This document shows positions 712-23,092 of a stretch of 64,000 nt of DNA, piece after piece. How positions within the stretch are numbered: the first letter of the stretch is position 1; each line of letters starts with the position of its first letter. This DNA is from Flavobacterium sp. (GTDB lineage: Bacteria > Bacteroidota > Bacteroidia > Flavobacteriales > Flavobacteriaceae): the NCBI GenBank assembly GCA_052437795.1, contig JBQVPA010000008.1; one strand, written 5' to 3'. Under the pieces are notes generated by a model. That model did no database searches. It saw only the letters and a list, made by a program, of their open reading frames with translations, and had not been told where the DNA came from. Position numbers and translations under genes: made by a program.

Positions 712-1105
712 GGAAGATCTTGTTGTCGCCAGGGAGCAGGATGTTGTGCCTTTGCGCAATAAAGTAAGAGATGCTGCGGTAAAGGTTGGGATGAGCATAT
801 TAAACCAAACCAAACTGATAACTGCGGCAAGCGAATTGGTAAGGAACCTGCTAAAGTATGGAGGGGGTGGCAGTGTTGCCATTGAGACGGTGAACAATGG
901 GCGCGATAACGGTATCCGGTTGGTATTTGCCGACAAGGGCCCGGGCATTGCTGATATAGAGATGGCAATGAAAGACGGTTACAGCACCGGAAAAAGCCTG
1001 GGGCTAGGGCTTCCGGGGACAAAAAGGCTGGTAAATGTTTTTGATATAAGATCGACGGTGGGCGAAGGCACTACCGTTACAATTATAAAATGGAAGAATG
1101 GATAA
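692..1105 (+). CDS. rsbT: RsbT serine/threonine kinase (anti-sigma-factor-type HATPase)
   Basis: QTKLITAASELVRNLLKYGGGG, DKGPGIADIEMAMKDGYSTGKSLGLGLPGTKRLV. Confidence 0.92.
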   Translation: MTTILNREDLVVAREQDVVPLRNKVRDAAVKVGMSILNQTKLITAASELVRNLLKYGGGGSVAIETVNNGRDNGIRLVFADKGPGIADIEMAMKDGYSTGKSLGLGLPGTKRLVNVFDIRSTVGEGTTVTIIKWKNG

Positions 1106-3720: not shown

Positions 3721-6261
3721 TTAAATTTCCCCTTTAAAATGGCGCTTTAAATAAAGTGCTGTCCGGCTTTCCGGACTTTTTGCTATTTGCGCAGGGATTC
3801 CTTGTGCAACGATCTTCCCACCCTTATTGCCAGCGCCGGGCCCAATATCGATAACCCAGTCACTTTGTACGATCACATCCATGTCGTGTTCTACCACGAT
3901 CACAGTATTGCCGGCATCGACCAGTCCCTTTAGCTGTACCATGAGCTTTTCTACGTCAGACGGGTGCAGCCCTGTTGTGGGCTCGTCCATTATGTACAAG
4001 GCATTACCCTGTTGCGCCCGCTGAAGTTCGGTTGCCAGTTTTATGCGCTGCGCTTCGCCACCGGAGAGTTCTGTAGCGGGCTGGCCCAGCCGCAGGTATC
4101 CCAAACCTACCTGCCGAACGACATCGAGGGCATGTGCGACAGGTCTCTCGTTATGAAAGAAGTCATACGCCTCATTTACGGTCATCCCCAATACTTGGGC
4201 TATGTTCCTGCCTTCATATTCCACCTCAAGGGTCTGCGCATTGTATCGTGTACCATGGCAGGTAGGGCAGGGCGAGTAGACACTGGGCAGGAAGAGCAGC
4301 TCGACCATCACGAAGCCTTCTCCCTGGCAATGGGGGCAACGGCCTTTTGCGACATTGAATGAAAATCTCCCGGCATCGTATTTCCTTGATCGTGCCAGTT
4401 TTGTCGCTGCGAATAATTTCCGGATATTGTCAAAAAGGCCAGTATAGGTGGCAAGGTTCGATCTGGGTGTCCTGCCGATCGGTTTTTGGTCGACCACCAC
4501 AAGCCGTTTTATATCTTCAAGGCCTTCTGTAATAGTCCCTCCAAGAGTTTCGATATTTGCCTGCTCTAAAGGGTTTTCATCGGTTTCGGCAGTAGTATCT
4601 ATCGATGCGCCAAGGTGGTTTGCGACCAGTTCGACAAGCACCTGGCTTACCAGTGTGCTTTTCCCGGAACCCGATACCCCTGTAACGCTTGTGAACACGC
4701 CCAAAGGAAGATCTACCGACAAGTCGCTTAGATTATTTTTGGTTACGCCCGTTAATTTAAGCCATCCCTTTGGAACCCTTGTAGCCTTGCCCGCCACTTT
4801 CCTGTCACCGAAAATATAGTGGCGCGTTATCGATCCCTCCACTTTTTTAAGGCCGTCGGGCGGACCGCTATACAGCACCTGCCCTCCCGATTCCCCGGCC
4901 GCAGGGCCAACGTCGACTATCCAGTCGGCATGCCGGATCACATCGATCTCATGCTCAACGACAAACAATGAATTGCCGGATGCCTTAAGCCTGTCCAGCG
5001 ACCGTAATAATGCCTCGGTATCCGCGGGGTGCAGCCCCGCGGATGGCTCGTCCAGGACATACACCACACCGAACAGGTTCGAACGTACCTGGGTAGCAAG
5101 CCGGAGCCGCTGCAATTCGCCCGGCGAAAGGGTAGGGGTGCTGCGTTCGAGGGTAAGATAGCCAAGGCCAAGGTCCAGGATCACGTTCAGCCTGGCCAGC
5201 AGGTCTTCGGCAATGCGATAGGCTACCAGTGTTTTTTCGGGGTGATCCTTATCGGCTTTTGCCAATTGTTCGGACAGGGGTTTTGCGAATGCTGCGAATA
5301 TTCCTGCCATATCCTCTAAAGGCACCCGGCTCATTTCGGCAATATCTAATCCCGCAAAGGTCACCGACAACGATCCTTTACGCAGCCGCTTTCCATTGCA
5401 TAGCGGACATTCGCTGCTTATCATGTATTGGGATACCCGTTTCTTCATAAGCGCGCTCTGCGTATTGGAGAACGTATGCATTACATAGCGCCTTACCCCC
5501 GTGAACGTGCCCATATAATCAGGCGGCATTTTTTTCTTTACTGCCTCCCTTGTCTGTTCCGGGCTGAGTCCCGGGTACACAGGCACTACCGGCTGCTCGT
5601 CGGTAAATAGTATCCAGTCACGGGTCTCTTTGGGCAGATCTTTCCACGGAATATCGACATCGTGGCCCAGGGTTACCAGTATATCCCGCTGGTTTTGCCC
5701 CTGCCAGGCCAGCGGCCATGCAGCAACAGCGCGTTCCCTTATTGTAAGCGAGTCATCGGGTACCATAGATCTCTCGGTCACTTCGTATACTTTGCCCAGG
5801 CCATGGCACTGCGGACAGGCACCTTCGGGCGTGTTGGAAGAGAAGGCTTCAGCATATATTATCGATTGGCCGGGGGGATAATCGCCGGCCCGGGAGTATA
5901 GCATCCTGAGCAGGTTGGACAACGTGGTAACACTGCCTACAGAAGACCGTGTACTCACAGCGCCGCGTTGCTGCTGCAGGGCTACCGCCGGGGGCAGCCC
6001 CTCGATCGAGTCGACCTCAGGTATGGCCATTTGGTTGAACAGCCTCCGGGCGTATGGCGATACCGAATCCAGGTACCTGCGTTGCGCTTCGGCATATAAC
6101 GTACCAAAGGCAAGGGAGGATTTTCCGGAACCGGAAACTCCAGTAAATACCACAAGCGCGTCGCGTGGTATGTCCACATTGATATCCTTGAGGTTATGCT
6201 CGCGTGCGCCATTTACTGTTACAAACCCTGTGAATTCTTTCTTGTTCTTTTCCTTTGTCAT
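3721..6261 (-). CDS. uvrA: UvrA-family ABC ATPase, class II (UvrA2/DrrC-like, appears to lack the UvrB-binding domain)
   Basis: GAREHNLK, two Walker A motifs GVSGSGKS, signatures LSPGELQR and LSGGEAQR, CxxC zinc modules; short segment between SRAG and the first zinc finger; 846 aa. Confidence 0.88.
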
Positions 6262-10178: not shown

Positions 10179-10205
10179 AATATAAAGTATAGGATCGATG
10201 AATAA

Positions 10206-10246
10206 CAAATATACCTAATGTATGTCGCATTTCCTTACACAATTTT
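10206..10246 (-). promoter_or_regulatory. Promoter with TGTAA box (AAAATTGTGTAA) and -7 element TATATTTG
   Basis: Box at 10235-10246 (minus), 21 nt gap, then TATATTTG at 10206-10213, which matches the Bacteroidota TAnnTTTG consensus. Confidence 0.6.
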
Positions 10247-10262
10247 GCATAAGTGTACTAAA

Positions 10263-10703
10263 TTAAGGGCTTATCACAAATTCGCTGAGCTGTTTTGGAA
10301 TATGCTGTTCCCAGTCATATGACAATACCTTTGCGATCAGTTTTTCAAGCCCCTCCAGGTCAAAAGGTTTTACCAAGTAGGAACTGGCCCCATATTTAAA
10401 TGCTTTTTTGATATCCGTTGGATCCTGGCTTGTGGAGTAGACAATTACCGGTACGGTATTGAACTTAGGATCTTTTTTAATATTGTCTAATGTTTCCAGC
10501 CCATTCATGACCGGCATGTTAATATCCACAAATATAATATCGGGCTCCGGCTGTCCGTTCTTAAGTTTGGAAACGAGCTCCAGGCCATCATTGGCAACAA
10601 TAAGGTTGCACTTTAATTTGAGCTTGTTCAGCGCGAACTTAAAGAAGTAGACATCGTCCATATCGTCTTCAGCAAGATAGATATTCCGGATAGCAAGTTT
10701 CAT
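10263..10703 (-). CDS. Single-domain response regulator (CheY/Rcp1-like)
   Basis: YLAEDDMDD, IFVDINMPVMNGLE, VYSTS, YLVKP. Confidence 0.9.
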   Translation of the reverse strand: MKLAIRNIYLAEDDMDDVYFFKFALNKLKLKCNLIVANDGLELVSKLKNGQPEPDIIFVDINMPVMNGLETLDNIKKDPKFNTVPVIVYSTSQDPTDIKKAFKYGASSYLVKPFDLEGLEKLIAKVLSYDWEQHIPKQLSEFVISP

Positions 10704-10997
10704 AAGTTAATTATTTAGAAACCTAAAAATAGATCTTAAAAGAATTGACTTACAAATAAGTAGTCCTGATAAAAAATAGATTTGGCATCGGTTGGATCTT
10801 GTAAAGTTAGGTAGATATAAACCCTGCAGCTATTACTTTAACGTAAAATGTTGGTTTACAGTTAAATATTAAAATTTACTTATCGGATGTCGGGCAAAGT
10901 ATAGGCGTTTTGAAAATTCCCATATATTGTTCAAAGCTATATAGTAGACGGTCCTGTTATTTGATATGTTTCGTTCTAAAAAATTAGATCAACGATC

Positions 10998-11037
10998 ATG
11001 CGTGTAAGATTTTTGTATTAAACAATATTTAATTTTT
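10998..11037 (+). promoter_or_regulatory. Candidate TGTAA-box promoter of the araC-response regulator operon
   Basis: CGTGTAA with TGTAA at 11003-11007, 22 nt gap, TAATTTTT at 11030-11037; weaker match than the other copies. Confidence 0.35.
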
Positions 11038-11127
11038 AACACATTGTGTTATTATTATCATAATTGGGAAGCATAGTAGTGAACAACTGTAATGATCTTT
11101 TATATTTACCTGATAAACACACCTATC

Positions 11128-11691
11128 ATGAACCTGCACCTTCGATACAATCTTGACAAGATGTGTCGTGCTGTTTTAACAGAACAGCTTGACAAACTTG
11201 GCTTCCGATACTCGCTTACCGACAGTGCATGCGTATATTTTTACGACCATGTACCTGATGAAGACTATGTCAAACTGCATGAGGCTCTACAGCAATATGG
11301 CATAGAGATACTCGATAACAAAAAGGCTGTAATGGTGCAAAAGGTGAAAGCCATTATTGGAGGAATGCTGGATAATAGCAATGCGCCGCTCATGAAAGTA
11401 TCAGCACACCTGTCAAATGAGCTTGGCGAGAATTACCGTACCATTGCCCAGATATTTAGCGAAACCTGCCACATGACCATTGAGAACTTCATCATCATGT
11501 GCAAGATCGAGCGCGCAAAGCAGCTGCTGATCGCCGAAGCGCTTTCCCTTACCGAGATCTCTTACAAACTCAACTACAGCAGCGTGGCCCATCTTTCCAA
11601 CCAGTTCAAGAAGATCACCGGCCTTACGCCCAGTTCTTTCCAAAAGATAGCCGTAAGCAGGAGGCATTTTAAAACGACCATGTTAAACTAA
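11128..11691 (+). CDS. Short AraC-family transcriptional regulator
   Basis: C-terminal KIERAKQLL...LSLTEISYKLNYSSVAHLSNQFKKITGLTPSSF; start at MNLHLRY preferred. Confidence 0.88.
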   Translation: MNLHLRYNLDKMCRAVLTEQLDKLGFRYSLTDSACVYFYDHVPDEDYVKLHEALQQYGIEILDNKKAVMVQKVKAIIGGMLDNSNAPLMKVSAHLSNELGENYRTIAQIFSETCHMTIENFIIMCKIERAKQLLIAEALSLTEISYKLNYSSVAHLSNQFKKITGLTPSSFQKIAVSRRHFKTTMLN

Positions 11692-11704
11692 ATTACAGGA
11701 ATAT

Positions 11705-12148
11705 ATGTATCTTGATAAACTTCATATTGTACTCGCAGAAGACGATCAGGATGACCGTCTTCTCTTTAATAACGTTTTTAATCATGTAAAGATCAACCAC
11801 ACCCTAAAAATTTGTGAGGATGGTATAGAACTGATGGATCACCTCAGGAATTCCGAAGAGGTTCCTGATATTATTTTCCTGGACCTTACCATGCCGGGCA
11901 AGTCCGGTATCGAATGCCTCAAAGAAATTAAAAAAGATCCAAGGCTTCGCGACATAACCATTGCGATATATTCCACAACTTCTGTAAAGGCAACGATCGA
12001 GCAGGCTTTCATACTCGGGGCCAATGTATTCATCAAAAAGCCTAACGAGTACGATGAGCTTAAAAAAGTATTGACAGAAGTTATCTACATCAACTGGCAG
12101 TACATCACCGAAGGGTTCAATAAAGAACATTTCATGATCAGCTACTAA
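11705..12148 (+). CDS. Single-domain response regulator (CheY/Rcp1-like)
   Basis: VLAEDDQDD, IFLDLTMPGKSGIE, IYSTT, FIKKP; 13 bp after the araC stop. Confidence 0.9.
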   Translation: MYLDKLHIVLAEDDQDDRLLFNNVFNHVKINHTLKICEDGIELMDHLRNSEEVPDIIFLDLTMPGKSGIECLKEIKKDPRLRDITIAIYSTTSVKATIEQAFILGANVFIKKPNEYDELKKVLTEVIYINWQYITEGFNKEHFMISY

Positions 12149-12173
12149 GCAAAATGCAAAATGACCACAACAT

Positions 12174-12206
12174 AAAAGAGAGACCTACATACGGCTCTCT
12201 TTTTTT
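12174..12206 (+). terminator. Intrinsic terminator after the araC-RR operon
   Basis: AAAAGAGAG...CTCTCTTTT stem followed by a T run. Confidence 0.6.
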
Positions 12207-12568
12207 GCTCATACTACTCAGAGGCGGCATTCCCTTGCGACTGCCTTTCCACAGGGTCGTTCGGTATCAGTTTCGCTGTCGGGACCGTATCCAGCCTTCT
12301 CTCTCCATGTCTCCCTGGGCGCCGCCACTGCCCATAGCTATTGTTGAAACAGTCGTCATAGATGGATCATGCAAACAAAAGGTAAAATGATATAAAAGAT
12401 CACGGCTGTGATCTCATAATTTTATAGTAAGTTATCTATGCAAAGGATAGTAGGCTTATATGATTTGTGTTTACTCAGGTTGTTTGGTTATCCCCTGCAC
12501 ACGCGGGGGATATTTTTTTATCCTTCTATGAGATCACGAACTAAAGACCGCCACACTGGCCTAAATGC

Positions 12569-12594
12569 AGAAAGCTTCTGTAAGGAAGCTTTCT
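12569..12594. terminator. Hairpin downstream of the DUF892 gene
   Basis: AGAAAGCTTC-N6-GAAGCTTTCT perfect 10 bp stem. Confidence 0.55.
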
Positions 12595-12620
12595 TTGTTA
12601 TTGGATCTATGTAATTGTAA

Positions 12621-13217
12621 TTATTCCATTTCCTCCTGCATGCCTTCTGCCGTTCCTTCACCTTCGACAGCATCAAGATTGATCGTATTATATGCGGCAT
12701 CGGTAAGTATCACATCCGCTTCTTTTTCCTCGGCCAGGGTTTCCTCCAGCAACGAGGCAACCTCTTCTTCACCAAGGATCTTCGCAAAAGCGACAAGCGT
12801 ACCGTAAGAAGCGATCTCGTAATGCTCGATCTTTTGCGAAGCTGAGATGATGCCTGCATCCCTCACAGGACCCAGCTCGGTATCTTTCATAATGTTTTCG
12901 CCTTCTTTTATCAGGCCTTCCATAGCCTCGCATTTTTTACCGCGGCCGTTTTCGCCAAGCATTTCAAATACCTGCTGCAGGCGCTCCACCTGGCGTTCGG
13001 TCACGGCTAGGTGCTCGTTGATCGCCTCTTTAAGTTTTGGGTCGGAAGCATTGTTCGCCATCTTCGGCAGTGATCTTACCAGTGCCCGCTCAGCATATAC
13101 GATATCTTTAAGCTCATCGATAAAAAGTTCCCTCAGGCCTTCTGCCGCCGAGGATCTTGCAGGAACGGTCCTTTGTCCTTTGCCGTAATTGCTTTTGTTT
13201 TGTGCTGAATTTGCCAT
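12621..13217 (-). CDS. DUF892 / YciE-YciF ferritin-like stress protein (copy 1)
   Basis: LFIDELKDIVYAE, KKCEAMEGLIKEG, RDAGIISASQKIEHYEIASYGTL; start MANSAQ. Confidence 0.9.
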   Translation of the reverse strand: MANSAQNKSNYGKGQRTVPARSSAAEGLRELFIDELKDIVYAERALVRSLPKMANNASDPKLKEAINEHLAVTERQVERLQQVFEMLGENGRGKKCEAMEGLIKEGENIMKDTELGPVRDAGIISASQKIEHYEIASYGTLVAFAKILGEEEVASLLEETLAEEKEADVILTDAAYNTINLDAVEGEGTAEGMQEEME

Positions 13218-13251
13218 AGTTTTTTTATTTTGAATTAGTTGAATACTTGGA

Positions 13252-13731
13252 TCACCTCTTACAATGTTCATACAGAAGGCCCGCTGCCCTGTCTGTTACC
13301 TGAAGGATCATTTCTTCCGGAGCGCCTTTATATACAGTCCTGTCATTTATGGTTCCTGTTGGCGTCACAATAGAAAGGAACATGGTACCCACGGGCTTCT
13401 CGGAAGTTTCACTGCCACCGGCTGTCGTAAGCCCTGTAACGGCAACAGTGACCTTCGAATTAAATAACCGTGCCGCCTGCTTTGCCAACGCTGCCGTTAC
13501 CTCGGCAGACTCGGGTGTATGGTCTTCTATAAGCTTGTGAGGCACATTTAGTATCTGCTCTTTTACAAACACCTCATAGCACGAGATCCCGCCCCGTAAA
13601 ATTTTTCCTGATTCCTCCGTTAGTGCAAATTCCGAACACATCCTGCCGGCCGTAGCGCTCTCAACGAAAGCTATGTTCCAACCCTTTGCCGCGATGGCCG
13701 CGCTGCATCGCTTTATGATCTCTGATGGCAT
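13252..13731 (-). CDS. cinA: CinA C-terminal domain protein (PncC-like NMN deamidase family)
   Basis: IAFVESATAG, ISCYEVFVKEQIL, AVTGLTTAGGSETSEKPVGTMF. Confidence 0.8.
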   Translation of the reverse strand: MPSEIIKRCSAAIAAKGWNIAFVESATAGRMCSEFALTEESGKILRGGISCYEVFVKEQILNVPHKLIEDHTPESAEVTAALAKQAARLFNSKVTVAVTGLTTAGGSETSEKPVGTMFLSIVTPTGTINDRTVYKGAPEEMILQVTDRAAGLLYEHCKR

Positions 13732-13759
13732 ATATACTGCTGTCTTTTTTGGTTCTACT

Positions 13760-13822
13760 CAAAGATACCTGTCCGTTAGGCCGTAGGTTTTACATAACCT
13801 CCCGAACATATTACACGATTTT
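13760..13822 (-). promoter_or_regulatory. cinA-DUF892 promoter with tandem TGTAA boxes
   Basis: TTACA at 13790 and 13811 (21 bp apart; distal box AAAATCGTGTAA on minus), 22 nt gap, TATCTTTG at 13760-13767. Confidence 0.65.
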
Positions 13823-13858
13823 TCTGTGAGGCATCTCTTGAATTGGAACCCCAAAAGG

Positions 13859-14042
13859 GTAGCAGATCTTCTGAAGTATCCAGGACTGTCCGGGATCAGC
13901 ACAAGCGAAAAATATGAAATGGACTACTGGAAAGAGAAGTTCGGCGTTTCGTCCCCACAGCTTTCCGGTCCGGTGCGTGCCGTGGGCAACAATGCAAAAG
14001 ATGTCGAGGTTTTACCTGAAGGAAAAGAAGGGTAAGAAGTGA
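13859..14042 (+). pseudogene. Degenerate DUF3606-family gene
   Basis: EKYEMDYWKEKFGVS..QLSG.VRAVGN motif; no ATG at the expected MAD start (GTA GCA GAT); removing one T in GGTTTTAC restores YLKEKKGKK-stop. Confidence 0.6.
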
Positions 14043-14083
14043 TAATGCAAAAAAGTGCATATGTAACGGGCTTTTTTGCATTA
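14043..14083. terminator. Bidirectional hairpin between the DUF3606 relic and ligD
   Basis: TAATGCAAAAAAG / CTTTTTTGCATTA 13 bp stem. Confidence 0.65.
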
Positions 14084-16111
14084 TTCAGTTAACAGTCCCT
14101 GCGCGAGAGGAAGTGCTTTCTTCATATCAATTCCCTTACCAAGGCTGCCGATAAAAATATCGCCTTCCGACCGGATGCGTGCTACAGCGTTCTGTATCGT
14201 AAAATCCTTCATCTTTAACCCTTTTTTGACTTCTTCCCAATGCAGCGGCATCGATACCGTGGCACCGGGTTTCGGGCGAAGTGAATAGGGGCAGGCGATC
14301 GTTGCACCCGGGCGGTTCTGCAGGAAGTCGAGGTACATTTTTCCTTCCCGGTTCTTTATCTGGCGCTCGGTGCTTGTGAATTCCGGCAATCGTTTATGTA
14401 CGATGGATACAATGAGCTTCCCGAACAATTGCGATTCATCATAAGAGTATTTCGCACCAAGCGGTATGTAGATATGGATGCCTGTCGACCCCGATGTCTT
14501 TACATATCCCGGCACACCAATAGCATCAAGCACCGCCTTAACTTCCTGTGCCGCAATGATGACCTGCTCAAACGTAGTATCCTTGTCAGGATCAAGGTCG
14601 ATAACGCAATAATCAGGGTCATCAGGATGTTTTATGGTGCTAAACCACGGGTTCATCTCTATGCAGCCTAGCGATGCCATGTAAAGCAGTGTTGCCTCAT
14701 CTTTGCCAACGAGGAATTCCTTGTCTTCACCATCGCTCGTAGTATAAGGGTATGTGTTCGCCCACTCCGGTGCTTTGCCTTTTACATCTTTCTGGTAAAA
14801 GCTTTTGCCGTAGATGCCATTGGGGAACCTGTTGAGCGACATGGGCCTGTCCTTAAGGTAAGGCAATATGTAGTCGGCGACCTGGTAGTAATAGTTGAAC
14901 ATATCCCGCTTGGTATATCCTTCTTCCGGCCAGTACACCTTGCTAAGGTTGCTGAATTTCAGGCTGTGCCCATTGATCTTCTTTACCTGCGATGCTTCTG
15001 TGGGGTTCAGCAACGTTTGCCTTCCGGTATCTTTGGGCGCAGTTACCAATGTTGTTTTGTTGCCTTTTTCTTTTCCTTTTGTAAGCTGCTCAGTCGCTGC
15101 CGCGGTTTCCAAAACCACATCGATCGCTTTTTTATCGGCGCGCATCCCTTCAAATGAAGGATGGCGGAAGACCCCGTCTGATGTGATCTCTGTAAAGCTC
15201 ACTTCACATACCAGCTTTGGCTTTAGCCATGTTGCCACGGCTTTTGGTGGGTTAGGACGAAAACGCGAAGGCTTATTGATGTCGGGCTCATATGTAAACG
15301 GCATTGCTGAGGTGATCAGCGGAGCGAACTGCTCCATCATTTCCCTTTGCGCTTTTGCGGTAAAGCCGGTACCTACTTTACCCACATATTCTAATTTTCC
15401 ATTGTTATGGACACCGAGCAGCAAGGAACTGAATAACTTATTTGTACCCTCATTTTTAGTGAATCCCCCAATAACGACTTCCTGCCTTTGGTTCACCTTG
15501 ATCTTCAGCCAATCCCTGGAGCGGCTGTCGGGAGAGTAAACGCTCGTCAGTTTCTTGGCCATGATCCCTTCCAGCCCCATCTTTTGCGCGGCTTCATAAA
15601 AGTCAAGGCCTCCGGCGGTAAATACCTGGCTCATCCGTATGCGGTCATCGGTCGCAGGCAGTATTTCCTTAAGGAGCGCCTGGCGCTCCGACAGTGGCAG
15701 GGCCATAACATCTTTCCCGTCATACCACAACAGGTCGAAGGCGTAGTAAACAAGGTCGCCGTCGGCTTCGCTCCGCCAGTTCTGCAATGCCCCAAAATTG
15801 GCTTTACCATCTTTATTGACTACCAGGATCTCTCCGTCTAGTACAGCGTTGATGCCAAGTTTAGCCATTGCCGAAACTATGGGATAGTATTTTTCGGTAA
15901 AGGGCTTGTTGTTGCGTGATGTAATTTCAACTGCTCCGTCATTGACATACGCCAGCGCCCTGTAACCGTCCCATTTTACTTCATAAGACCAGTTGGAGTC
16001 ATCGAAAGGCTCATTGACCAGCGTAGCAAGCATAGGCTTGACACCGGCAAGCATTTTAGAGGGTTTGTGGGCCGACTTGGGTTTTCCGGGAGATGTTTCT
16101 TTTTTGATCAC
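14081..16111 (-). CDS. ligD: NHEJ DNA ligase D (ligase + polymerase domains, no phosphoesterase domain recognised)
   Basis: YEVKWDGYR adenylation motif, EGIMAK, WLKIK, FRHPSF; polymerase domain with LSKVYWP, IDLDP, KTSGSTGIHI, YLDFLQN, PYSLRP. Confidence 0.92.
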   Translation of the reverse strand: MIKKETSPGKPKSAHKPSKMLAGVKPMLATLVNEPFDDSNWSYEVKWDGYRALAYVNDGAVEITSRNNKPFTEKYYPIVSAMAKLGINAVLDGEILVVNKDGKANFGALQNWRSEADGDLVYYAFDLLWYDGKDVMALPLSERQALLKEILPATDDRIRMSQVFTAGGLDFYEAAQKMGLEGIMAKKLTSVYSPDSRSRDWLKIKVNQRQEVVIGGFTKNEGTNKLFSSLLLGVHNNGKLEYVGKVGTGFTAKAQREMMEQFAPLITSAMPFTYEPDINKPSRFRPNPPKAVATWLKPKLVCEVSFTEITSDGVFRHPSFEGMRADKKAIDVVLETAAATEQLTKGKEKGNKTTLVTAPKDTGRQTLLNPTEASQVKKINGHSLKFSNLSKVYWPEEGYTKRDMFNYYYQVADYILPYLKDRPMSLNRFPNGIYGKSFYQKDVKGKAPEWANTYPYTTSDGEDKEFLVGKDEATLLYMASLGCIEMNPWFSTIKHPDDPDYCVIDLDPDKDTTFEQVIIAAQEVKAVLDAIGVPGYVKTSGSTGIHIYIPLGAKYSYDESQLFGKLIVSIVHKRLPEFTSTERQIKNREGKMYLDFLQNRPGATIACPYSLRPKPGATVSMPLHWEEVKKGLKMKDFTIQNAVARIRSEGDIFIGSLGKGIDMKKALPLAQGLLTE

Positions 16112-16143
16112 GGCTTACTATTTGAATTTGAAATACAGGTACA

Positions 16144-16314
16144 TTATTCTTGTTCATCGAAAAACTCACGGGCACGTTTAAGCCCGGTCGCTATAGCGAT
16201 CCCTTCTTCAACACCTTCTTTCAAAAGGGCATTCGCGATCTCTACTGCCTTTTCCCTTAGGTATTCAGGCTGGTTCTTATAGGCTGGCGGATAGTCGCCG
16301 TTGTACCAGGGCAT
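16144..16314 (-). CDS. 56-aa small protein resembling the N-terminus of Bacillus YdaT general-stress protein (absent from the ORF track)
   Basis: Manual translation MPWYNGDYPPAYKNQPEYLREKAVEIANALLKEGVEEGIAIATGLKRAREFFDEQE; ATG lies 3 nt after the upstream stop. Confidence 0.75.
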   Translation of the reverse strand: MPWYNGDYPPAYKNQPEYLREKAVEIANALLKEGVEEGIAIATGLKRAREFFDEQE

Positions 16315-16317
16315 GGC

Positions 16318-17082
16318 TTAAATATCAGGGTTATTATTGCGTATTTCATCGTGGCTCAGCAGTACGACCTGATAATTGTCCGCCGAACGCAGCAACGTAA
16401 TAGTTGAAGGCTCTTTCAGGTCAGATGCCAGGTTTGCCCAAACAAGTTCCCTATCTTCGTATACACTGCTTCGCTGGGAGCGGAACAATACATAGATGGA
16501 GAACTCATCATCGTTGAAGAACAGGTCCCGGTTTTCGTCCAGTATCAGCCTTGGCCCCTTGTACATGATCTCGGCTTCCTTATCATAAACCAGCTTAGCC
16601 AGCCTGTCATATAGTATGGCATTGCCCTCGGCGCCTGTAGGGTCAAATTCAAGTTCGGCCCTGGTACCGCCTATGCGTACCAAAATATCTTCCCATTCCT
16701 GTTCATTATTGTAAAGCGTATCGGAATTGATAGATGGCAATGAAGACAATTCTATTAATTGGTGATGTCCGTCCGATTCCCTGATCTCAGGAAGATCAAG
16801 CCGTGAAGCCTCTGACTCCAATATCCTCCAAAGTGATCCGTCATCATCTTCATCTGGCGTTATTTCCCTGAACAATACATAGGTTGAAAATCCGTCGTCA
16901 TGCCTTGGCAGCAGGTGGTGATCATAACGGAAATAATCCCCTTTATACACGAGGTCAGCCATACGAAGTGAGATCGCTTCTTTTAGGCTCCTGTAGAAAT
17001 TTGCATAATTCTCAGGTTTTCCGATCTTAAGTTGTGGTATGTCGCGGCTCATTAGCCGCAACACGATATCATTTGTTCTCAT
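16318..17082 (-). CDS. Hypothetical protein made of two tandem ~125-aa repeats
   Basis: 254-aa ORF inside the ankyrin-ligD operon; repeated YKG...DD.FS.YVLFR motif. Confidence 0.75.
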   Translation of the reverse strand: MRTNDIVLRLMSRDIPQLKIGKPENYANFYRSLKEAISLRMADLVYKGDYFRYDHHLLPRHDDGFSTYVLFREITPDEDDDGSLWRILESEASRLDLPEIRESDGHHQLIELSSLPSINSDTLYNNEQEWEDILVRIGGTRAELEFDPTGAEGNAILYDRLAKLVYDKEAEIMYKGPRLILDENRDLFFNDDEFSIYVLFRSQRSSVYEDRELVWANLASDLKEPSTITLLRSADNYQVVLLSHDEIRNNNPDI

Positions 17083-17087
17083 TGTGA

Positions 17088-17591
17088 CTATACATTTTGA
17101 GTTGATATTTTTTCTTCAGTTTCCTGTAGGCGAGCTAAGCCTTCTGTATTACCCTGCTGGGCGGCGAGGTCGGCAGCGGTCATGCCACGTTTGTCCCTGA
17201 TATGCCTGTCGGCGCCCCAGGCAAGCAGGAGCGCCACAATGTCATTACGCCCGAACATTGCCGCGAACATTAGCGCTGTACCGCCATTACCGTTCTGCAG
17301 ATCAATGCCGGCGCCATTTTTCAAAAGCAGTTGTGCCACTTCAGGATAGCCTTTGAACGATGCACCCATGAGCGCAGTATTCCCGCTATTATCGGCAATG
17401 TCAATATTAGCGCCTGCCTCCAAAAGTGCCTCAACGGCCTCGGGATGGTTATTATAGGCAGCAAGGATCAGCGGCGTAAAGCCTTTTTCATCATGTATGT
17501 CTACAGTATCTTTTAGTGCAAAGATCTCCAATAGTACAGGGACATTCCCTTGGCGTGAGGCAGCGAATAACGCCTGTGTGATCTCGTCCAT
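17088..17591 (-). CDS. Ankyrin-repeat protein (AnkB-like)
   Basis: GFTPLILAAYNNH, GNTALMGASFKGY, GGTALMFAAMFGR, GMTAADLAAQQG. Confidence 0.92.
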   Translation of the reverse strand: MDEITQALFAASRQGNVPVLLEIFALKDTVDIHDEKGFTPLILAAYNNHPEAVEALLEAGANIDIADNSGNTALMGASFKGYPEVAQLLLKNGAGIDLQNGNGGTALMFAAMFGRNDIVALLLAWGADRHIRDKRGMTAADLAAQQGNTEGLARLQETEEKISTQNV

Positions 17592-17831
17592 TGTATGTTA
17601 TTTATGTTTATTATTATAAGTGTAACTCATTTCGGTTTAGTGAAATAAAAGCAACATCCAATTTACGATCTCTATTTTTTAAGTATGGTAAATTTTATTT
17701 AAAGTTTTTTACATCCTGCGAACACATTTGATTCTAATAATATAATAAATGTTCGCATATTTTTATGTATACTAATAAAAATCAAATAGTTATGTGTGTT
17801 ATTGACAGGATGTCGAAAATCGTCAGAAGGT

Positions 17832-17843
17832 AAAATCATGTAA
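17832..17843 (+). promoter_or_regulatory. TGTAA box upstream of katE
   Basis: Exact AAAATCATGTAA; no clear TAnnTTTG at the expected spacing. Confidence 0.5.
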
Positions 17844-17924
17844 TTTGTTTTAGCACAAACTTGACAGTACTTAGTGTTGAAAATGAGGAACTTCACATTT
17901 TTAAAACCGTCAAAAAAGCATCCA

Positions 17925-20081
17925 ATGAAACAAAACAACAAATCCTATCGTATCGACCAGGAAGCAAAGCAGCGGGACCTGTCGACCAACAAGTCTGATG
18001 CTACCAACAAGGCCCTTACGACCAACCAGGGCGTAAGGATCAACGACGACAATAATTCACTGAAGGCCGGTGAGCGTGGGCCATCCCTTTTGGAAGATTT
18101 CATATTAAGGGAAAAGATCACCCATTTTGACCATGAGCGCATCCCGGAGCGTATTGTCCATGCAAGGGGTTCCGCGGCACATGGCTATTTTGAAGTGACC
18201 AACCCGATACCGCAATTCACCAAAGCCGGCTTCCTGCAGGAAGTAGGGCAGAGAACTCCTGTGTTCACGCGTTTCTCGACCGTAGCCGGATCGCGCGGCT
18301 CTACCGACCTTGCCCGTGACGTTCGCGGTTTCTCAGTAAAATTCTACACTCAGGAAGGCATATACGACCTTGTAGGCAATAATATACCTGTATTTTTTAT
18401 TCAGGATGCTACCAAGTTCCCTGACCTTGTTCATGCGGTAAAGCCTGAACCGCACAACGAGATACCGCAGGCAGCATCCGCCCACGATACCTTTTGGGAC
18501 TTCATTTCCCTGATGCCGGAGTCTGCCCATATGATCATGTGGCTGATGTCCGACAGGGCCATACCACGCAGCTACCGAATGATGGAAGGCTTTGGGGTAC
18601 ATACATTCCGGCTTATCAACGAACAGGGAGAGTCGCACTTTGTAAAGTTCCACTGGAAGCCAAAGCTCGGCACGCACGCTGTTGTGTGGGACGAGGCACA
18701 GAAAATATCAGGAAAAGACCCTGATTTCCACAGAAGGGACCTTTGGGAAGCCATTGAGACGGGTAATTTTCCCGAATGGGAACTTGGCGTACAGGTAATA
18801 CCGGATGCCGATGAGCACAACTTTGAGTTCGACCTTCTGGACCCTACAAAGATCGTCCCCGAAGAAGTGGTGCCTGTCACCATAATAGGTAAGATGGTGC
18901 TTAACAGGAATCCCGATAACTTTTTTGCTGAGACCGAGCAGGTGGCATTCCATCCGGGGCATGTGGTGCCGGGGATCGATTTTACGAATGACCCGCTGCT
19001 GCAGGGCAGGCTGTTCTCGTATACTGACACGCAGCTGTTGCGGCTTGGCGGGCCCAACTTCCATGAGATACCTATCAACAGGAGCTTAGCGGCAGTGAAC
19101 AACAACCAGCGTGACGGCTTTATGCGCCAGGAGATCAATATTGGCAGGGTGAGCTATTCACCAAATTCACTGGGCGGGGATTGTCCTTACCAGGCCAGGA
19201 TCGACCAGGGAGGTTTTACAAGTTTCAATGAGCGTTTGGAAGCCCATAAGGTACGCCAGAGGAGCGAGAGCTTTTCCGACCATTTCGGGCAGGCAAAGCT
19301 ATTCTTCAATAGCCAGACACAGGTGGAGAAAGACCATATCGTCAGGGCATTCCGTTTTGAGCTTGGCAAGGTAGATACAACGGCTATCCGTGTGCGTATG
19401 GTGGGTATATTGGCCCAGATAGATACTGTACTTGCTGAGAAAGTGGCAGCAGGACTGAGGATCGAAGTTCCTGCTACGCCGGAGCAGCCGATGAACCATG
19501 GCGTGTCTCCCGAACGGAGAGGGCAGGAGCAGGAGCCAAGAACAGTGCCATCTTCAGTATCCGCCTCGCAGGCGTTAAGCATGATCGATGATCCGACCGT
19601 ACAGCCGACGATCGCTTCCCGTAAGGTGGCCATCATTTGCGCCGACGGTGTGGATGAAAAGGCGGTGCTTTCCATGAAGACAGCACTGATAAAACAAAGT
19701 GCCAAAGGCTGTGTCGTAGCGCCCTACCTTGGTAAGGTGCAAACGGGGCAGGGAGGTGAGATCCCCGTGGACTTCAGTTTCCTGACCAGCTCATCGGTAT
19801 TGTTCGATGCGGTGTATATTCCCGGAGGCCTCGACCTGAACGAACTGTCACAGAACCCCGATGTTATGGATTTCCTTAGCGATGCTTACAGGCACTGTAA
19901 GGTCATTGGCGCGCAGGGGGATGGAATAGAATTGCTCTCGGGCACTTCATTTGCCGCGAAGCTCGATAATGCGGATAAGGGCATCATAATGGACGAAGGT
20001 ATGCAGGACAGTGAATTTGCGGCAGCGTTCATTGCCGCCATGGCCAACCACCGCGTTTGGGAACGCGAAGCGCAACTATAA
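17925..20081 (+). CDS. katE: Large-subunit monofunctional catalase (HPII) with C-terminal DJ-1/GATase-like domain
   Basis: FDHERIPERIVHARG, RFSTVAG, VGNNIPVFF, RLFSYTDTQ, SSVLFDAVYIPGG; start MKQNN preferred over 17874. Confidence 0.95.
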   Translation: MKQNNKSYRIDQEAKQRDLSTNKSDATNKALTTNQGVRINDDNNSLKAGERGPSLLEDFILREKITHFDHERIPERIVHARGSAAHGYFEVTNPIPQFTKAGFLQEVGQRTPVFTRFSTVAGSRGSTDLARDVRGFSVKFYTQEGIYDLVGNNIPVFFIQDATKFPDLVHAVKPEPHNEIPQAASAHDTFWDFISLMPESAHMIMWLMSDRAIPRSYRMMEGFGVHTFRLINEQGESHFVKFHWKPKLGTHAVVWDEAQKISGKDPDFHRRDLWEAIETGNFPEWELGVQVIPDADEHNFEFDLLDPTKIVPEEVVPVTIIGKMVLNRNPDNFFAETEQVAFHPGHVVPGIDFTNDPLLQGRLFSYTDTQLLRLGGPNFHEIPINRSLAAVNNNQRDGFMRQEINIGRVSYSPNSLGGDCPYQARIDQGGFTSFNERLEAHKVRQRSESFSDHFGQAKLFFNSQTQVEKDHIVRAFRFELGKVDTTAIRVRMVGILAQIDTVLAEKVAAGLRIEVPATPEQPMNHGVSPERRGQEQEPRTVPSSVSASQALSMIDDPTVQPTIASRKVAIICADGVDEKAVLSMKTALIKQSAKGCVVAPYLGKVQTGQGGEIPVDFSFLTSSSVLFDAVYIPGGLDLNELSQNPDVMDFLSDAYRHCKVIGAQGDGIELLSGTSFAAKLDNADKGIIMDEGMQDSEFAAAFIAAMANHRVWEREAQL

Positions 20082-20099
20082 TATTTAAAAAAATAAAAA

Positions 20100-20684
20100 A
20101 TGAAAGATACAAAACAAAATCCGGGAACATCACCGTCAAAAGCCGGCAATATGGTGGTACAACCTGCAGCCGATGCTGCCAACGATATGAGGGCACTGTT
20201 CATAGACTCCCTTAAGGATATTTACTGGGCAGAGAACGCACTGGTAAGGGCATTGCCAAAGATGATAGCCAACGCTACAGCACCGCTGTTGGCTTCTGCC
20301 ATAACAGAGCACCTTGAGATCACCAAGATCCAGGTGGAACGCCTGGATGCCGTTTTCAGCCTGTTGGGTGAGACTGCTGAAGGCAAAAAGTGCGAGGCTA
20401 TGGCAGGGCTGATCAAAGAAGGTGACAGTATACTGGAGGAGACCATGCCCGGCCCTGTGCGTGACGCGGGCATCATTGCCGCTTCGCAAAAGATAGAGCA
20501 CTATGAGATCGCTACTTACGGAACGCTTTGTGCCTTTGCGAAAGCCCTGGGCGAGAATGATGCGGTACAGCTGCTTACCCAAACCCTGGCTGAAGAAAAA
20601 GAAGCGGATATGATACTCAGCGATGCCGCATGCGGGATGATCAACCTTAAAGCAGCAGACAATACGTTAAGAGAAGCATTATAA
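20100..20684 (+). CDS. DUF892 / YciE-YciF ferritin-like stress protein (copy 2)
   Basis: LFIDSLKDIYWAE, KKCEAMAGLIKEG, RDAGIIAASQKIEHYEIATYGTL. Confidence 0.9.
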   Translation: MKDTKQNPGTSPSKAGNMVVQPAADAANDMRALFIDSLKDIYWAENALVRALPKMIANATAPLLASAITEHLEITKIQVERLDAVFSLLGETAEGKKCEAMAGLIKEGDSILEETMPGPVRDAGIIAASQKIEHYEIATYGTLCAFAKALGENDAVQLLTQTLAEEKEADMILSDAACGMINLKAADNTLREAL

Positions 20685-20697
20685 TAAAAAGAATGCT

Positions 20698-20910
20698 ATG
20701 AAAAAGATACAAAGCCTTGTTTTACGATATTCCTGTTGTGTGCTGCTGCTCGCAACAGTATCGTGCCGTGAGCCCTCAGGGCAAAAGAGCGGCAGTGATG
20801 ACGGAAGGGAAGCCAACGGCGACACCAGGGGAAGCAGTTCACCCGCAGACAATGAGGGCTCGGGCAGCGGACCGGGCGCAACACCATCAAAAGAGAACAA
20901 TGAGCGGTAA
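20698..20910 (+). CDS. Small putative lipoprotein with hydrophilic Gly/Ser-rich tail
   Basis: Signal-like MKKIQSLVLRYSCCVLLLATVS-C then low-complexity tail; 13 bp after the DUF892 stop. Confidence 0.55.
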   Translation: MKKIQSLVLRYSCCVLLLATVSCREPSGQKSGSDDGREANGDTRGSSSPADNEGSGSGPGATPSKENNER

Positions 20911-21331
20911 TATTGCGAAGCACCAGGGGACGATGTCCCTGCTTCAGGAAGAAAAGGTATTTGGTTTAAAACCTTCATACGATACGGATATGGAACCTTT
21001 CAGTACGTGTGTGATCAGGATAGATAGCAAAGGAACTTATGCAGGGAAAGTCAATTATTGTGAGGTACTGTCAGAATTGGACAGGGCTATTGACACGCGA
21101 AGCTATGAGATATTATGCCTTGGCGAAGACAGCTCCTTTATGATAGCGGATCCGGATAATGGTTTTTTCACCTATATCCAGTTCAATTTCCCTTCACCTA
21201 TTTCTGCATTTGAGGATATCGGGGATATGATAAGGTTACTGGCCGGAGGAAATTGCTGCATGGATACCTTGCGTCAAACCGAACACTACAGGCTGCTTTT
21301 GGTCGATGAGTGCCAGATCAGCTTTAAATAG
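20900..21331 (+). CDS. Hypothetical protein (143 aa)
   Basis: ATG at 20900 overlaps the previous stop; ORF ends before a terminator. Confidence 0.55.
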   Translation: MSGNIAKHQGTMSLLQEEKVFGLKPSYDTDMEPFSTCVIRIDSKGTYAGKVNYCEVLSELDRAIDTRSYEILCLGEDSSFMIADPDNGFFTYIQFNFPSPISAFEDIGDMIRLLAGGNCCMDTLRQTEHYRLLLVDECQISFK

Positions 21332-21368
21332 ATCCTGTTCCTGTTTACTTTATTTCGTACTTATATGC

Positions 21369-21398
21369 TAAAAGGCTGCCGATCAAGGCAGCCTTTTA
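21369..21398. terminator. Bidirectional intrinsic terminator
   Basis: TAAAAGGCTGCC-N6-GGCAGCCTTTTA between convergent genes. Confidence 0.75.
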
Positions 21399-21450
21399 GC
21401 TTTTTGCCTTGTGTGGCAAGTAGAATAAGTGCTTTCATAGTATCGGTATT

Positions 21451-21921
21451 TTAACGCTCTAAAGTAGGATCCGCTTTATCTGCCATCTTATAGACAAGAA
21501 TGGCGGTGATCGTAAAAATGATATGTGCTGTAAAAAGCTGCCTGTAGTAGCCATGGCGATAATTATGGGGAGGATTATCGTGTGCTGCAAAAAATATTTT
21601 CCATGCGGCTATTCCAGCCATGCCGCTAAGCGCGCCGATAACGAGCAACCTTGCCACACCCGGATCTTTGAGCGCTTTACGCCACAGCAGCCAGTATGCC
21701 GCAACAAATGCTATCCCCGTGAGGTAATGGAGGCCCCATCCGGCAGGATGCAGCTCTTTGTTACGTATTTCGGGCAGGCTGTCGGAATTGTTGATGAGCT
21801 TATTTATCATTATGGGCTCAACATACTCTTCGCCTTCCTTTTTTGACTTCCAATAGCTGTACAGGGTCATCAGCGTAGTGCCTGCGATGCCTGCTATGAT
21901 GATCTTTTCCAGTGGTTTCAT
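21451..21921 (-). CDS. Hypothetical membrane protein (about 4 TM)
   Basis: IIIAGIAGTTLMTLYSY, GWGLHYLTGIAF, QLFTAHIIF hydrophobic segments. Confidence 0.75.
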   Translation of the reverse strand: MKPLEKIIIAGIAGTTLMTLYSYWKSKKEGEEYVEPIMINKLINNSDSLPEIRNKELHPAGWGLHYLTGIAFVAAYWLLWRKALKDPGVARLLVIGALSGMAGIAAWKIFFAAHDNPPHNYRHGYYRQLFTAHIIFTITAILVYKMADKADPTLER

Positions 21922-21954
21922 ACAATGTATATTTATAGTTACAGTTAACAGGAA

Positions 21955-22015
21955 TTAAATTACGTAAAGTACAGCTCCCATCTTTACACCATTTATCATA
22001 TCCCTTGCAAGATTG
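21955..22015 (-). promoter_or_regulatory. Tandem TGTAA-like boxes upstream of the membrane protein gene
   Basis: On minus AATCTTGCAA and AATGGTGTAA (forward TTGCA 22005, TTACA 21984; 21 bp apart); weak -7 TAATTTAA 21 nt downstream. Confidence 0.45.
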
Positions 22016-22035
22016 TCCCTGTCCGTTGGCGATAC

Positions 22036-22096
22036 AATTATGTAAGGCACACAAAAAATCATGTAACGTTAGCCCTTTATGAGATACATAACTTTA
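22036..22096 (+). promoter_or_regulatory. DUF6766 promoter with tandem TGTAA boxes
   Basis: AATTATGTAA (TGTAA 22041) and AAAATCATGTAA (TGTAA 22062), 21 bp apart; 22 nt gap; TAACTTTA at 22089-22096. Confidence 0.65.
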
Positions 22097-22143
22097 TCCT
22101 GCTTGATAAGTTAGCCGGTCATAAGGCATTAAAGTCAAATAAT

Positions 22144-22797
22144 ATGAAGTTTTTCAGAAACAATTCCTTGTCCATATCCTTCTTTTTGCTTTTCCTCCTA
22201 TCCCTTGGTGGGCAGGTGTTTTTCGGGTTGAAAGAATATAACAAAGAGCTTGTGCAAGAGGGAGGAGAACATGTAGGTCTCACCGGTTATCTAACCTCCG
22301 GCCATTTCCTGCAGTCAACATTTGAGAACTGGGAAAGTGAATTTTTGCAGATGGCGCTTTTGGTGGTATTCACCATTTTCCTGATGCAGAAAGGCTCATC
22401 GGAAAGCAAAGACCCCGACTCGGAGGAAGAAGTGGACCGTGAACCCGATCCTCGCCGAAAGAATGCGCCGTGGCCGGTACGTACCGGCGGATGGGTTTTG
22501 GCAATATACAAGCATTCGCTTACCCTTGTGCTGCTGGTATTATTCGCTATCAGCTTTATACTCCACTTTCATGGCAGCCTAAAAGACGAGAATGTACACC
22601 TGGCCCTGCAAGGACATCCACCCGAAACAGCGTCTGAGTACTTCTTCGATTCGCGGTTCTGGTTCGAATCCCTGCAAAATTGGCAGAGCGAATTCCTCTC
22701 GGTCTTCGCGATAGTCGTCCTGTCTGTTTACCTGAGACAAAAGGGTTCCCCACAATCCAAACCGGTAGATGCCCCTAATGCCGAAACGGGGGAATAA
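22144..22797 (+). CDS. DUF6766-family membrane protein
   Basis: NNSLSI, TFENWESEFLQ, QKGSSESK, FESLQNWQSEFLS, RQKGSPQSKPV internal repeat. Confidence 0.8.
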   Translation: MKFFRNNSLSISFFLLFLLSLGGQVFFGLKEYNKELVQEGGEHVGLTGYLTSGHFLQSTFENWESEFLQMALLVVFTIFLMQKGSSESKDPDSEEEVDREPDPRRKNAPWPVRTGGWVLAIYKHSLTLVLLVLFAISFILHFHGSLKDENVHLALQGHPPETASEYFFDSRFWFESLQNWQSEFLSVFAIVVLSVYLRQKGSPQSKPVDAPNAETGE

Positions 22798-23005
22798 TAC
22801 AGATTTGGAAATTGTGATCATCCGGTATTTTTAAGGGGTTGTGTCAAAATACTTCAGAGTGGGTCATTCAGAGGGAGTTATAATATTGACGAGAACATCG
22901 GTATGCTGATCGATACCGATAAATACATTATCGTATGCTTGAAGGAAAGTGAGAATTGCTCCTTTAAACAATAGTTCCCATACACTAACTGTACAACTTT
23001 TACAC

Positions 23006-23047
23006 AAAATCATGTAAGTAACACCAGCCATTGTATTCGCACATTTG
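23006..23047 (+). promoter_or_regulatory. GT-glf-GH operon promoter with TGTAA box
   Basis: Exact AAAATCATGTAA at 23006-23017, 22 nt gap, CACATTTG at 23040-23047. Confidence 0.6.
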
Positions 23048-23092
23048 TTATTGTCCATAACGGGCATATGATAACGATTAACTAATTAATTT

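Follow-up and report, generated by a model that had tools for sequence, protein, structure and literature searches.

Gene Content and Promoter Boxes of the Cluster

We analyzed a 64-kb stretch of a Flavobacterium sp. genome (GCA_052437795.1, contig JBQVPA010000008.1; 4.06 Mb, 45% G+C), hereafter referred to as the window (C8:8422-72421). A short DNA box recurs in this window upstream of katE, two DUF892 genes, cinA, a DUF6766 gene, an operon encoding a glycosyltransferase and UDP-galactopyranose mutase (Glf), a membrane protein gene, an operon encoding RR1, a kinase, and a UvrA-like protein, and a candidate small RNA. The same cluster encodes a small AraC-family protein and, directly behind it, a single-domain receiver. 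The gene names in an initial annotation, made from the sequence alone, proved correct by Pfam, including the UvrA-like gene at 3721-6261 on the minus strand. The putative promoters, each with its box and a TAnnTTTG-like downstream element (-7 box), are as follows:

10206-10246, minus strand: promoter of the RR1/CheB-CheR-PAS kinase/UvrA-like operon; box AAAATTGTGTAA at 10235-10246, 21-nt spacer, -7 box TATATTTG at 10206-10213
13760-13822, minus strand: cinA-DUF892 promoter; distal unit AAAATCGTGTAA at 13811-13822, proximal unit GGTTATGTAA with TGTAA at 13790-13794, 22-nt spacer, -7 box TATCTTTG at 13760-13767
17832-17872, plus strand: katE-DUF892 promoter; box AAAATCATGTAA at 17832-17843, degenerate -7 box CAGTACTT at 17865-17872, 21 nt downstream
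21955-22009, minus strand: weak promoter of a gene for a 156-amino-acid (aa) membrane protein (21451-21921); -7 box TAATTTAA at 21955-21962, proximal TGTAA as the reverse complement of 21984-21988, distal TGCAA at 22005-22009
22034-22096, plus strand: DUF6766 promoter; distal unit ACAATTATGTAA at 22034-22045, proximal unit AAAATCATGTAA at 22055-22066, 22-nt spacer, -7 box TAACTTTA at 22089-22096
23006-23047, plus strand: promoter of the glycosyltransferase/UDP-galactopyranose mutase/399-aa protein operon; box AAAATCATGTAA at 23006-23017, 22-nt spacer, -7 box CACATTTG at 23040-23047

The 12-mer AAAATCRTGTAA has four exact matches in the window (13811-13822 on the minus strand; 17832-17843, 22055-22066, and 23006-23017 on the plus strand), compared to about 0.05 expected, and none of 100 dinucleotide-preserving shuffles of the window gave four copies. 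The whole genome holds only five copies, four of them inside this 10-kb cluster; the fifth (C1:577662, minus strand) is intergenic and lies 54 nt ahead of a gene. The boxes that the initial annotation had placed ahead of katE, DUF6766, and the glycosyltransferase operon are exact matches, as is its copy ahead of cinA-DUF892, and the variant AAAATTGTGTAA that it reported ahead of the RR1 run is also present. Two further sites, at 12384-12395 (plus strand) and at C8:304-359 (outside the window), were absent from that annotation.

Each promoter has one or two units of 10-12 bp in the same orientation, with a period of 21 bp. Among the pairs that had been proposed at this distance, those at 13790/13811 and 22041/22062 stand, whereas the pair at 21984/22005 is weaker (distal unit TGCAA). 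The distance of 21-22 nt claimed between TGTAA and the TAnnTTTG-like element holds for the RR1 promoter (21 nt) and for the cinA, DUF6766, and glycosyltransferase promoters (22 nt each).

Conservation of a Composite Promoter

For comparison, we collected 80 loci with DUF6766 relatives from Flavobacterium, Chryseobacterium, Chitinophagaceae, and others, in which KatE, DUF892, CinA, LigD, glycosyltransferase-Glf, CheB-CheR kinases, and receivers are recurrent neighbors. In an unbiased word count, TGTAA was the most enriched 5-mer upstream of the orthologous stress genes (53/96 regions, compared to 207/789; p = 1.7e-8). The distance from one T[GA]TAA to the next has a single peak at exactly 21 bp, with 27 cases upstream of labeled genes and 55 upstream of other genes of these islands (other distances: 0-10), and the spacer between TGTAA and T[AT]nnTTT[GA] peaks at 21-22 nt. 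The consensus of 70 aligned sites reads AATTnTRTAA-N11-AATTnTRTAA-N21-TAAATTTG and lacks TTTG where a -33 element would sit. In general form, the composite promoter consists of AATYnTRTAA, N11, AATYnTRTAA, N21-22, and TAnnTTTG, the first two units being direct repeats exactly 21 bp apart. Given the 70-site consensus, AAAATCRTGTAA is, in terms of sequence, merely a local and less AT-rich flavor of the class-wide AATYnTRTAA box.

Four closer relatives, found via their AraC homologs (loci L111, L113, L114, and L115), were compared at the DNA level. At their RR1, cinA, katE, DUF6766, and DUF3606 promoters, these relatives retain the boxes and -7 boxes with the 21-22-nt spacing, while the intervening sequence has diverged. 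The checks that the initial annotation had raised on its motif include noise at AT-rich intergenic sites and conservation at orthologous promoters. The k-mer enrichment, the 21-bp peaks, and the shuffles mark the box as non-random, and the orthologous promoters retain boxes and spacing with diverged spacers.

In genome scans, a reversed-pattern control gave near-zero counts where the forward pattern gave 7-38 per genome. Strict site patterns in the ambiguity code of the International Union of Pure and Applied Chemistry (IUPAC) work in AT-rich Flavobacterium but yield only 0-2 matches in the present genome with its 45% G+C. Because of this undercount, they were replaced with a sequence-only covariance model of the composite promoter (hereafter the profile), built mainly from other genomes. 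The six best profile matches in the window all lie between 10.2 and 23.1 kb, and the best matches genome-wide are those in the C8 island, C8:304, C5:47830, and C1:73483. An earlier position weight matrix from the window's own sites was discarded, as its matches below approximately 18 bits were mostly coding-region noise; its matches ahead of a LacI-type gene (C3:538093) and a large surface-protein gene (C2:766180) are likely false positives. On this comparative evidence, the boxes are conserved promoter elements of a stress-protection gene set in many Bacteroidota.

The downstream element of the composite promoter matches TAnnTTTG, the -7 box of sigma-A promoters in Flavobacterium, which is located at -12 to -5 (PMC9723704). 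Because of this position, the proximal unit should cover approximately -45 to -34, in the place of the -33 element, and the distal unit approximately -66 to -55. The direct repeats 21 bp apart (82 site pairs; in the window, 13790/13811 and 22041/22062) are the arrangement typical of class II activation, and a proximal TGTAA that ends 21-22 nt before TAnnTTTG is compatible with the predicted overlap of the -33 region. From this geometry, we infer an activator-dependent class II promoter bound by a tandem pair of the AraC/XylS type.

The AraC-Family Protein and Its Partner Receiver

The candidate activator and its partner are encoded by two adjacent genes:

11128-11691, plus strand: araC, encoding a 187-aa AraC-family protein (Pfam HTH_18, 3.1e-17; HTH_AraC, 6.2e-09)
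11705-12148, plus strand: single-domain receiver RR3 (Pfam Response_reg), starting 14 nt after araC

Both Pfam scores of the AraC protein are above the curated cut-offs, and the protein has the C-terminal DNA-binding domain with two helix-turn-helix (HTH) motifs. An AlphaFold2 model with seven helices (predicted local distance difference test score of 86) places this canonical two-HTH domain behind an N-terminal alpha/beta domain of approximately 60-80 aa. The top Foldseek matches are AraC-type DNA-binding domains (AraC, MarA, SoxS, Rob, AdpA, and YesN), and among solved structures, the DNA-binding domain comes closest in fold to the C-terminal domains of AraT (6swi) and YesN (3lsg). A cupin-type effector/dimerization domain is absent from the protein; its N-terminal part consists of two helices and two short strands, has no Pfam match, and is only faintly similar to a ferredoxin-like metal-binding domain (3fry, E = 0.45). 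Among 46 homologs (42-86% identity), the HTH2 helix YSSVAHLSNQFK is near-invariant, and near-invariant recognition helices fit an invariant box. A cysteine in the N-terminal domain (C13) is also near-invariant in these homologs, which may leave room for redox input to AraC. No other DNA-binding protein was identified among the annotated cluster genes.

The receiver is not fused to AraC, which lacks a Response_reg domain by Pfam, but is encoded by the next gene. By eye, the translation of RR3 contains the motifs AEDDQDD, IFLDLTMP, YSTT, and FIKKP, of the kind usual for the acid pocket and phospho-acceptor site of receivers. Full-length AraC homologs were found in 24/24 genomes tested, and in 20 of these an RR3 ortholog lies approximately 30 nt after the best AraC homolog; AraC is also followed by an RR3 ortholog in L111, L113, and L114. 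This gene order is nearly always kept in Flavobacteriales, and the conserved pairing suggests that the phosphorylated receiver controls AraC.

Around AraC lie three output-less receivers and the CheB-CheR-PAS histidine kinase. The operon for RR1, this kinase, and the UvrA-like protein itself carries a box; the pathway is therefore likely to act back on its own components. The AraC cluster is adjoined in the window by genes for an RsbS-like STAS protein, an RsbT-like kinase, an HATPase_c_2-PP2C protein, and a histidine kinase (313-3715, plus strand), and an RsbR-S-T-PP2C-kinase block also adjoins AraC in a relative (L113:1046-5328). This arrangement suggests a stressosome that feeds a two-component pathway in place of a sigma factor.

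A second AraC-receiver operon lies outside the window (C1:727979-728999, minus strand), with 49 and 55% identity to the window pair. This pair is nearer to the common Flavobacterium type (50% compared to 40% identity), which is the type found behind dps and csbD. Two more tandem AraC paralogs, one with an in-frame TAA, are located at C1:72296-73405, and a profile match (C1:73483-73543) lies just upstream of them.

Linkage Between AraC and the Promoter

The AraC gene lies in the island in all four closer relatives fetched (L111 and L113-L115). Among 30 AraC loci of 3.5 kb each, 14 have a two-box promoter within 1.5 kb, compared to a rough estimate of 0.6 expected. We then scanned 151 genomes from approximately 100 genera across the class, using cut-offs of E ≤ 0.01 for the profile and E ≤ 1e-28 for AraC, and 47 of these genomes hold a profile match. 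AraC is present in 17/20 genomes with at least two promoter matches but in only 35/131 of the others (Fisher p = 9e-7). Furthermore, 9/25 genomes with both have a promoter match no more than 400 bp away from the AraC gene (0.06 expected; p = 3e-17). In several families, TGAATnATGTAAC-N10-nAATTnTGTAAC-N21-22-CAnCTTTG is found directly upstream of AraC, which in these families often precedes a kinase gene and a receiver gene. Composite promoters stand directly beside homologs of the 11128-11691 protein in at least nine families. AraC-adjacent composite promoters have the appearance of the classic signature of an autoregulated factor with its own site, which is no proof of binding.

Taken together, we consider it likely that the boxes are binding sites for the small AraC-family activator at activator-dependent sigma-A promoters. 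Comparative genomics thus supports the suggestion of the initial annotation that the local AraC activates a stress regulon through the housekeeping sigma factor, and the most probable activator of the box promoters is this small AraC-type protein of the cluster.

Several observations weigh against this assignment. The promoter of araC in the window has no conserved box, many Flavobacterium genomes have the AraC gene hundreds of kb away from the main island, and three genomes with at least two promoter matches had no AraC at the cut-off used. The profile matches in very AT-rich (tiny) genomes include false positives. The adjacency of AraC and promoter could also result if another factor controlled AraC as just one of its regulon members. 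The conserved core found here is a contiguous 10-mer, unlike the textbook site of the AraC family with its two subsites spaced by about one helical turn. Finally, the acting AraC is ambiguous given the pair on C1; because this second pair is the more Flavobacterium-typical one, the two paralogs may share or split the sites.

One claimed site was also dropped, namely:

11003-11007, plus strand: TGTAA ahead of araC

This copy has no profile match and is not kept in L111, and it is probably not a functional site. Autoregulation of the window araC through it was rejected on these grounds, although autoregulation is clear in other families. A different element upstream of araC, GTGTTATTATTATCATAATT at 11046-11065 (plus strand), is kept in L111 and L114, unlike the TGTAA at 11003; it may be the promoter of araC itself or an operator for another regulator.

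Individual Promoters of the Window

The best site in the window is the DUF6766 promoter (profile E = 4.6e-05), and the same two-box design is found upstream of the DUF6766 orthologs in Flavobacterium loci and L114. The glycosyltransferase promoter has a profile match at 22995-23048 (plus strand; E = 0.0018), and the orthologous glycosyltransferase gene of another locus (L027) has a two-box promoter. For the RR1 promoter, the match at 10205-10252 (minus strand; E = 0.003) corresponds to a predicted start near 10201; L111 and L114 retain the box, the spacing, and the -7 box, and the spacer has diverged in L114. The cinA promoter matches at 13759-13821 (minus strand; E = 0.004); L111 has two boxes and a -7 box identical to these but a diverged 22-nt spacer. 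The membrane-protein promoter has the weakest of these matches (21957-22014, minus strand; E = 0.053).

The katE promoter conforms in part. The box reported at 17832 stands and is kept upstream of katE in L113 and L115, but the -7 box at the expected distance is merely the degenerate CAGTACTT, and the profile detects only the box. The relatives have better boxes at their 21-nt position (CAGCTTTT and GAGCTTTC).

Directly ahead of katE, GAAAATGAGGAACTTCAC at 17879-17896 (plus strand) is kept in L113 and L115. One possible reading is a short leader peptide, MRNFTF, whose frame meets a stop in L115, agrees with that of katE in this genome, and differs from it in L113. Alternatively, the block could be part of a GGAAC-N16-CGTC promoter resembling those of extracytoplasmic function (ECF) sigma factors, though its -10 portion is not conserved. 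The ankyrin-hyp254-LigD operon is preceded by TGTAAAAAACTTTAAAT at 17700-17720 (minus strand), which is common to the corresponding L113 promoter and does not fit the 21-nt geometry.

Content of the Proposed Regulon

In the related loci, the genes directly behind two-box promoters encode Ku, Mn-catalase, DUF892, short-chain dehydrogenases, MscS, a flavin adenine dinucleotide oxidoreductase with a Rieske domain, a flavin mononucleotide reductase, SpoIIAA-like proteins, and DUF2383. When whole related islands are considered, KatE, LigD, and DEAD-box helicases are added. As judged from these annotations, the gene content of the regulon is of the general-stress type. Because of this protective gene content, the regulon would amount to a general-stress or survival response that relies on the housekeeping sigma factor.

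We also tallied the Pfam families of 139 proteins from eight motif-rich Flavobacterium islands, retaining the 25 top families, all with at least three members. Histidine kinases and receivers are the only regulators in this tally, and it contains no DNA-binding family (LytTR or other) among the top 25, a list that is not exhaustive.

Further islands show related arrangements. The typical order in Flavobacterium (L092-L101, approximately 380-1350) is a two-box promoter, a Dps-like ferritin gene, a second two-box promoter, csbD, a terminator, AraC, and the receiver; the distal unit of the csbD promoter reads TGCAR. Outside the window, the same promoter design precedes genes for a 106-aa membrane protein and a short-chain dehydrogenase (C8:304-1616). 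Another region (C5:46000-51500) contains paralogs of DUF892 and LigD, with promoter matches at C5:46051 and C5:47830.

Downstream of the receiver gene, we found an additional site:

12384-12424, plus strand: single-box promoter; AAAATGATATAA at 12384-12395, 21-nt spacer, TAATTTTA at 12417-12424

It has a profile match at 12371-12425 (plus strand; E = 0.033) and is followed by a predicted transcript of approximately 90 nt (approximately 12429-12520; fold z-score -3.2) that closes with the strong terminator hairpin CCCCTGCACACGCGGGG and a T run. The box and the hairpin are kept in L111:14220-14362, with paired changes in the stem. An Rfam scan of the cluster gave no credible match; the sole one was MicX at 12032-12212 on the opposite strand (24.8 bits, compared to a gathering cut-off of 75). 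The segment 12384-12520 (plus strand) is a candidate for a stress-induced small RNA or a tiny peptide gene, convergent with cinA-DUF892.

Alternative Explanations

The strongest alternative is that a different transcription factor, such as a LytTR- or OmpR-type response regulator, binds the boxes, and that the AraC-receiver genes are merely members or neighbors of its regulon. LytTR sites are 9-bp direct repeats with a 12-bp spacer, and LytTR- and OmpR-type regulators use repeats with a period of approximately 21 bp just upstream of the promoter. The 10-bp repeat with its 11-bp spacer resembles the LytTR layout, and the core forms one contiguous block without two subsites. The islands also hold many kinases and receivers, and AraC is encoded far from the main island in several genomes. 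However, neither the top-25 tally nor the annotated cluster genes other than araC include a LytTR or other DNA-binding family, and those island receivers that were examined have no output domain. Across at least nine families, this AraC is the sole DNA-binding gene to accompany the motif, and we consider the involvement of another factor unlikely.

A second alternative is that an alternative sigma factor recognizes the element without an activator, reading TGTAA as its -35 and the TAnnTTTG-like box as its -10. TGTAAC is similar to -35 elements known for some ECF sigma factors, such as the SigX-type TGTAAC of B. subtilis. The spacing to the downstream box is fixed, as for a sigma factor, and Bacteroidota encode many ECF sigma factors. 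Two features of the sites led us to reject an ECF-type promoter with TGTAAC as -35 and CGT as -10: the downstream box has the sigma-A consensus rather than that of a CGT-type ECF -10, and the base after TGTAA varies in the window (T, C, G, G, and A). In addition, a second whole 10-mer exactly 21 bp upstream is unexpected for a sigma factor, no sigma factor gene was identified among the annotated cluster genes, and the top-25 tally of the eight Flavobacterium islands contains no sigma factor family. A sigma-only promoter is therefore very improbable.

The last alternative, that the sites are chance AT-rich matches or remnants of repeated or mobile DNA without a regulatory role, can draw on the commonness of short AT-rich words in Bacteroidota intergenic DNA and on some single profile matches in tiny AT-rich genomes that are clearly noise, but it is effectively refuted by the shuffles, by the reversed-pattern control, by the strict gene orientation of the sites at a fixed distance from -7 boxes, and by the conservation between species of the boxes alone and not of their flanks. 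A palindromic site of the Crp/Fnr type was also rejected, as the box is non-palindromic and always oriented toward the gene.

Relation to Known Regulators

Class II activation at tandem repeats is known for members of the AraC/XylS family, namely, AraC at araI1-I2, XylS at Pm, RhaS/RhaR, and MelR. The system described here shares with them the two-HTH domain and direct repeats with a 21-bp period, and by its geometry the proximal unit would overlap the -35/-33 region at a housekeeping-sigma promoter that lacks its upstream element. It differs in having a small alpha/beta N-terminal domain in place of a cupin-type ligand/dimerization domain, and its input is probably a separate receiver with kinases rather than a small-molecule effector. 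Further differences are the contiguous 10-mer core, the Bacteroidota -7/-33 promoter, and stress targets in place of a catabolic operon.

As in YesN, AraT, and the hybrid two-component systems of Bacteroides with their AraC output domains, a receiver and an AraC domain would here belong to one pathway beside histidine kinases. In contrast to YesN and AraT, the two are encoded here by separate genes of one operon, or in other families in the layout AraC-kinase-receiver. MarA, SoxS, and Rob, all three of which are among the fold matches, are also small AraC-family proteins that serve dispersed stress genes at housekeeping-sigma promoters. Each of the three binds one asymmetric 20-bp box as a monomer, and control is exerted through its synthesis or through a ligand domain. 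In the present case, the sites are in tandem at a 21-bp period, and the protein has an extra N-terminal domain and a receiver partner.

The gene set resembles the regulons of SigB (RsbRST), RpoS, and EcfG-NepR-PhyR, which likewise include KatE, Dps, CsbD, YciE/F-like DUF892 proteins, Ku/LigD, and short-chain dehydrogenases, and the RsbS/RsbT/PP2C-type genes that adjoin the cluster here and in L113 recall the SigB stressosome. The difference is that no alternative sigma factor was identified among the annotated cluster genes; instead, the sigma-A -7 box is kept, and a predicted activator site takes the place of the -33 element. The link between a CheR-type methyltransferase and a stress kinase in the cluster also resembles the RsbK-RsbM system of B. 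cereus (PMC4574943).

A Possible General Stress Switch in Bacteroidota

In the mechanism that we propose, a tandem pair of AraC proteins on the proximal and distal units would replace the -33 element at sigma-A promoters. The regulator would be the 187-aa AraC of the window, or this protein jointly with its C1 paralog, and its activity would probably be set by the RR3 receiver encoded just behind it. This receiver would be fed by the neighboring histidine kinases, namely, the CheB-CheR-PAS kinase and the kinase that adjoins the RsbS/RsbT/PP2C genes. In relatives, the regulon would also take in dps, csbD, Ku/LigD, Mn-catalase, short-chain dehydrogenases, and MscS.

A broader and more tentative reading, to which we give somewhat less than even chances, is that AraC, the receiver, the kinases, and the stressosome-type genes together form a general-stress master switch of Bacteroidota, with the phosphorylated receiver as co-activator and at least one small RNA in the regulon. 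As part of this joint proposal, the switch would correspond in function to SigB, RpoS, and EcfG, in the form of a split receiver-plus-AraC activator that acts on sigma-A promoters.

In the literature searched, which includes a promoter atlas of Flavobacterium (PMC9723704), we found no description of the motif or of this AraC regulator. The comparison yields a named candidate regulator with a conserved receiver partner, together with a gene set typical of survival under oxidative stress, desiccation, and starvation. If the receiver does act on AraC, the pair would represent an unusual split form of the receiver-AraC regulators. To our knowledge, Bacteroidota, which are central to soil, freshwater, marine, and host-associated communities, have no described general stress regulator on a par with SigB, RpoS, or EcfG. 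The rigid promoter signature predicts members of the regulon from sequence in many families of this group.

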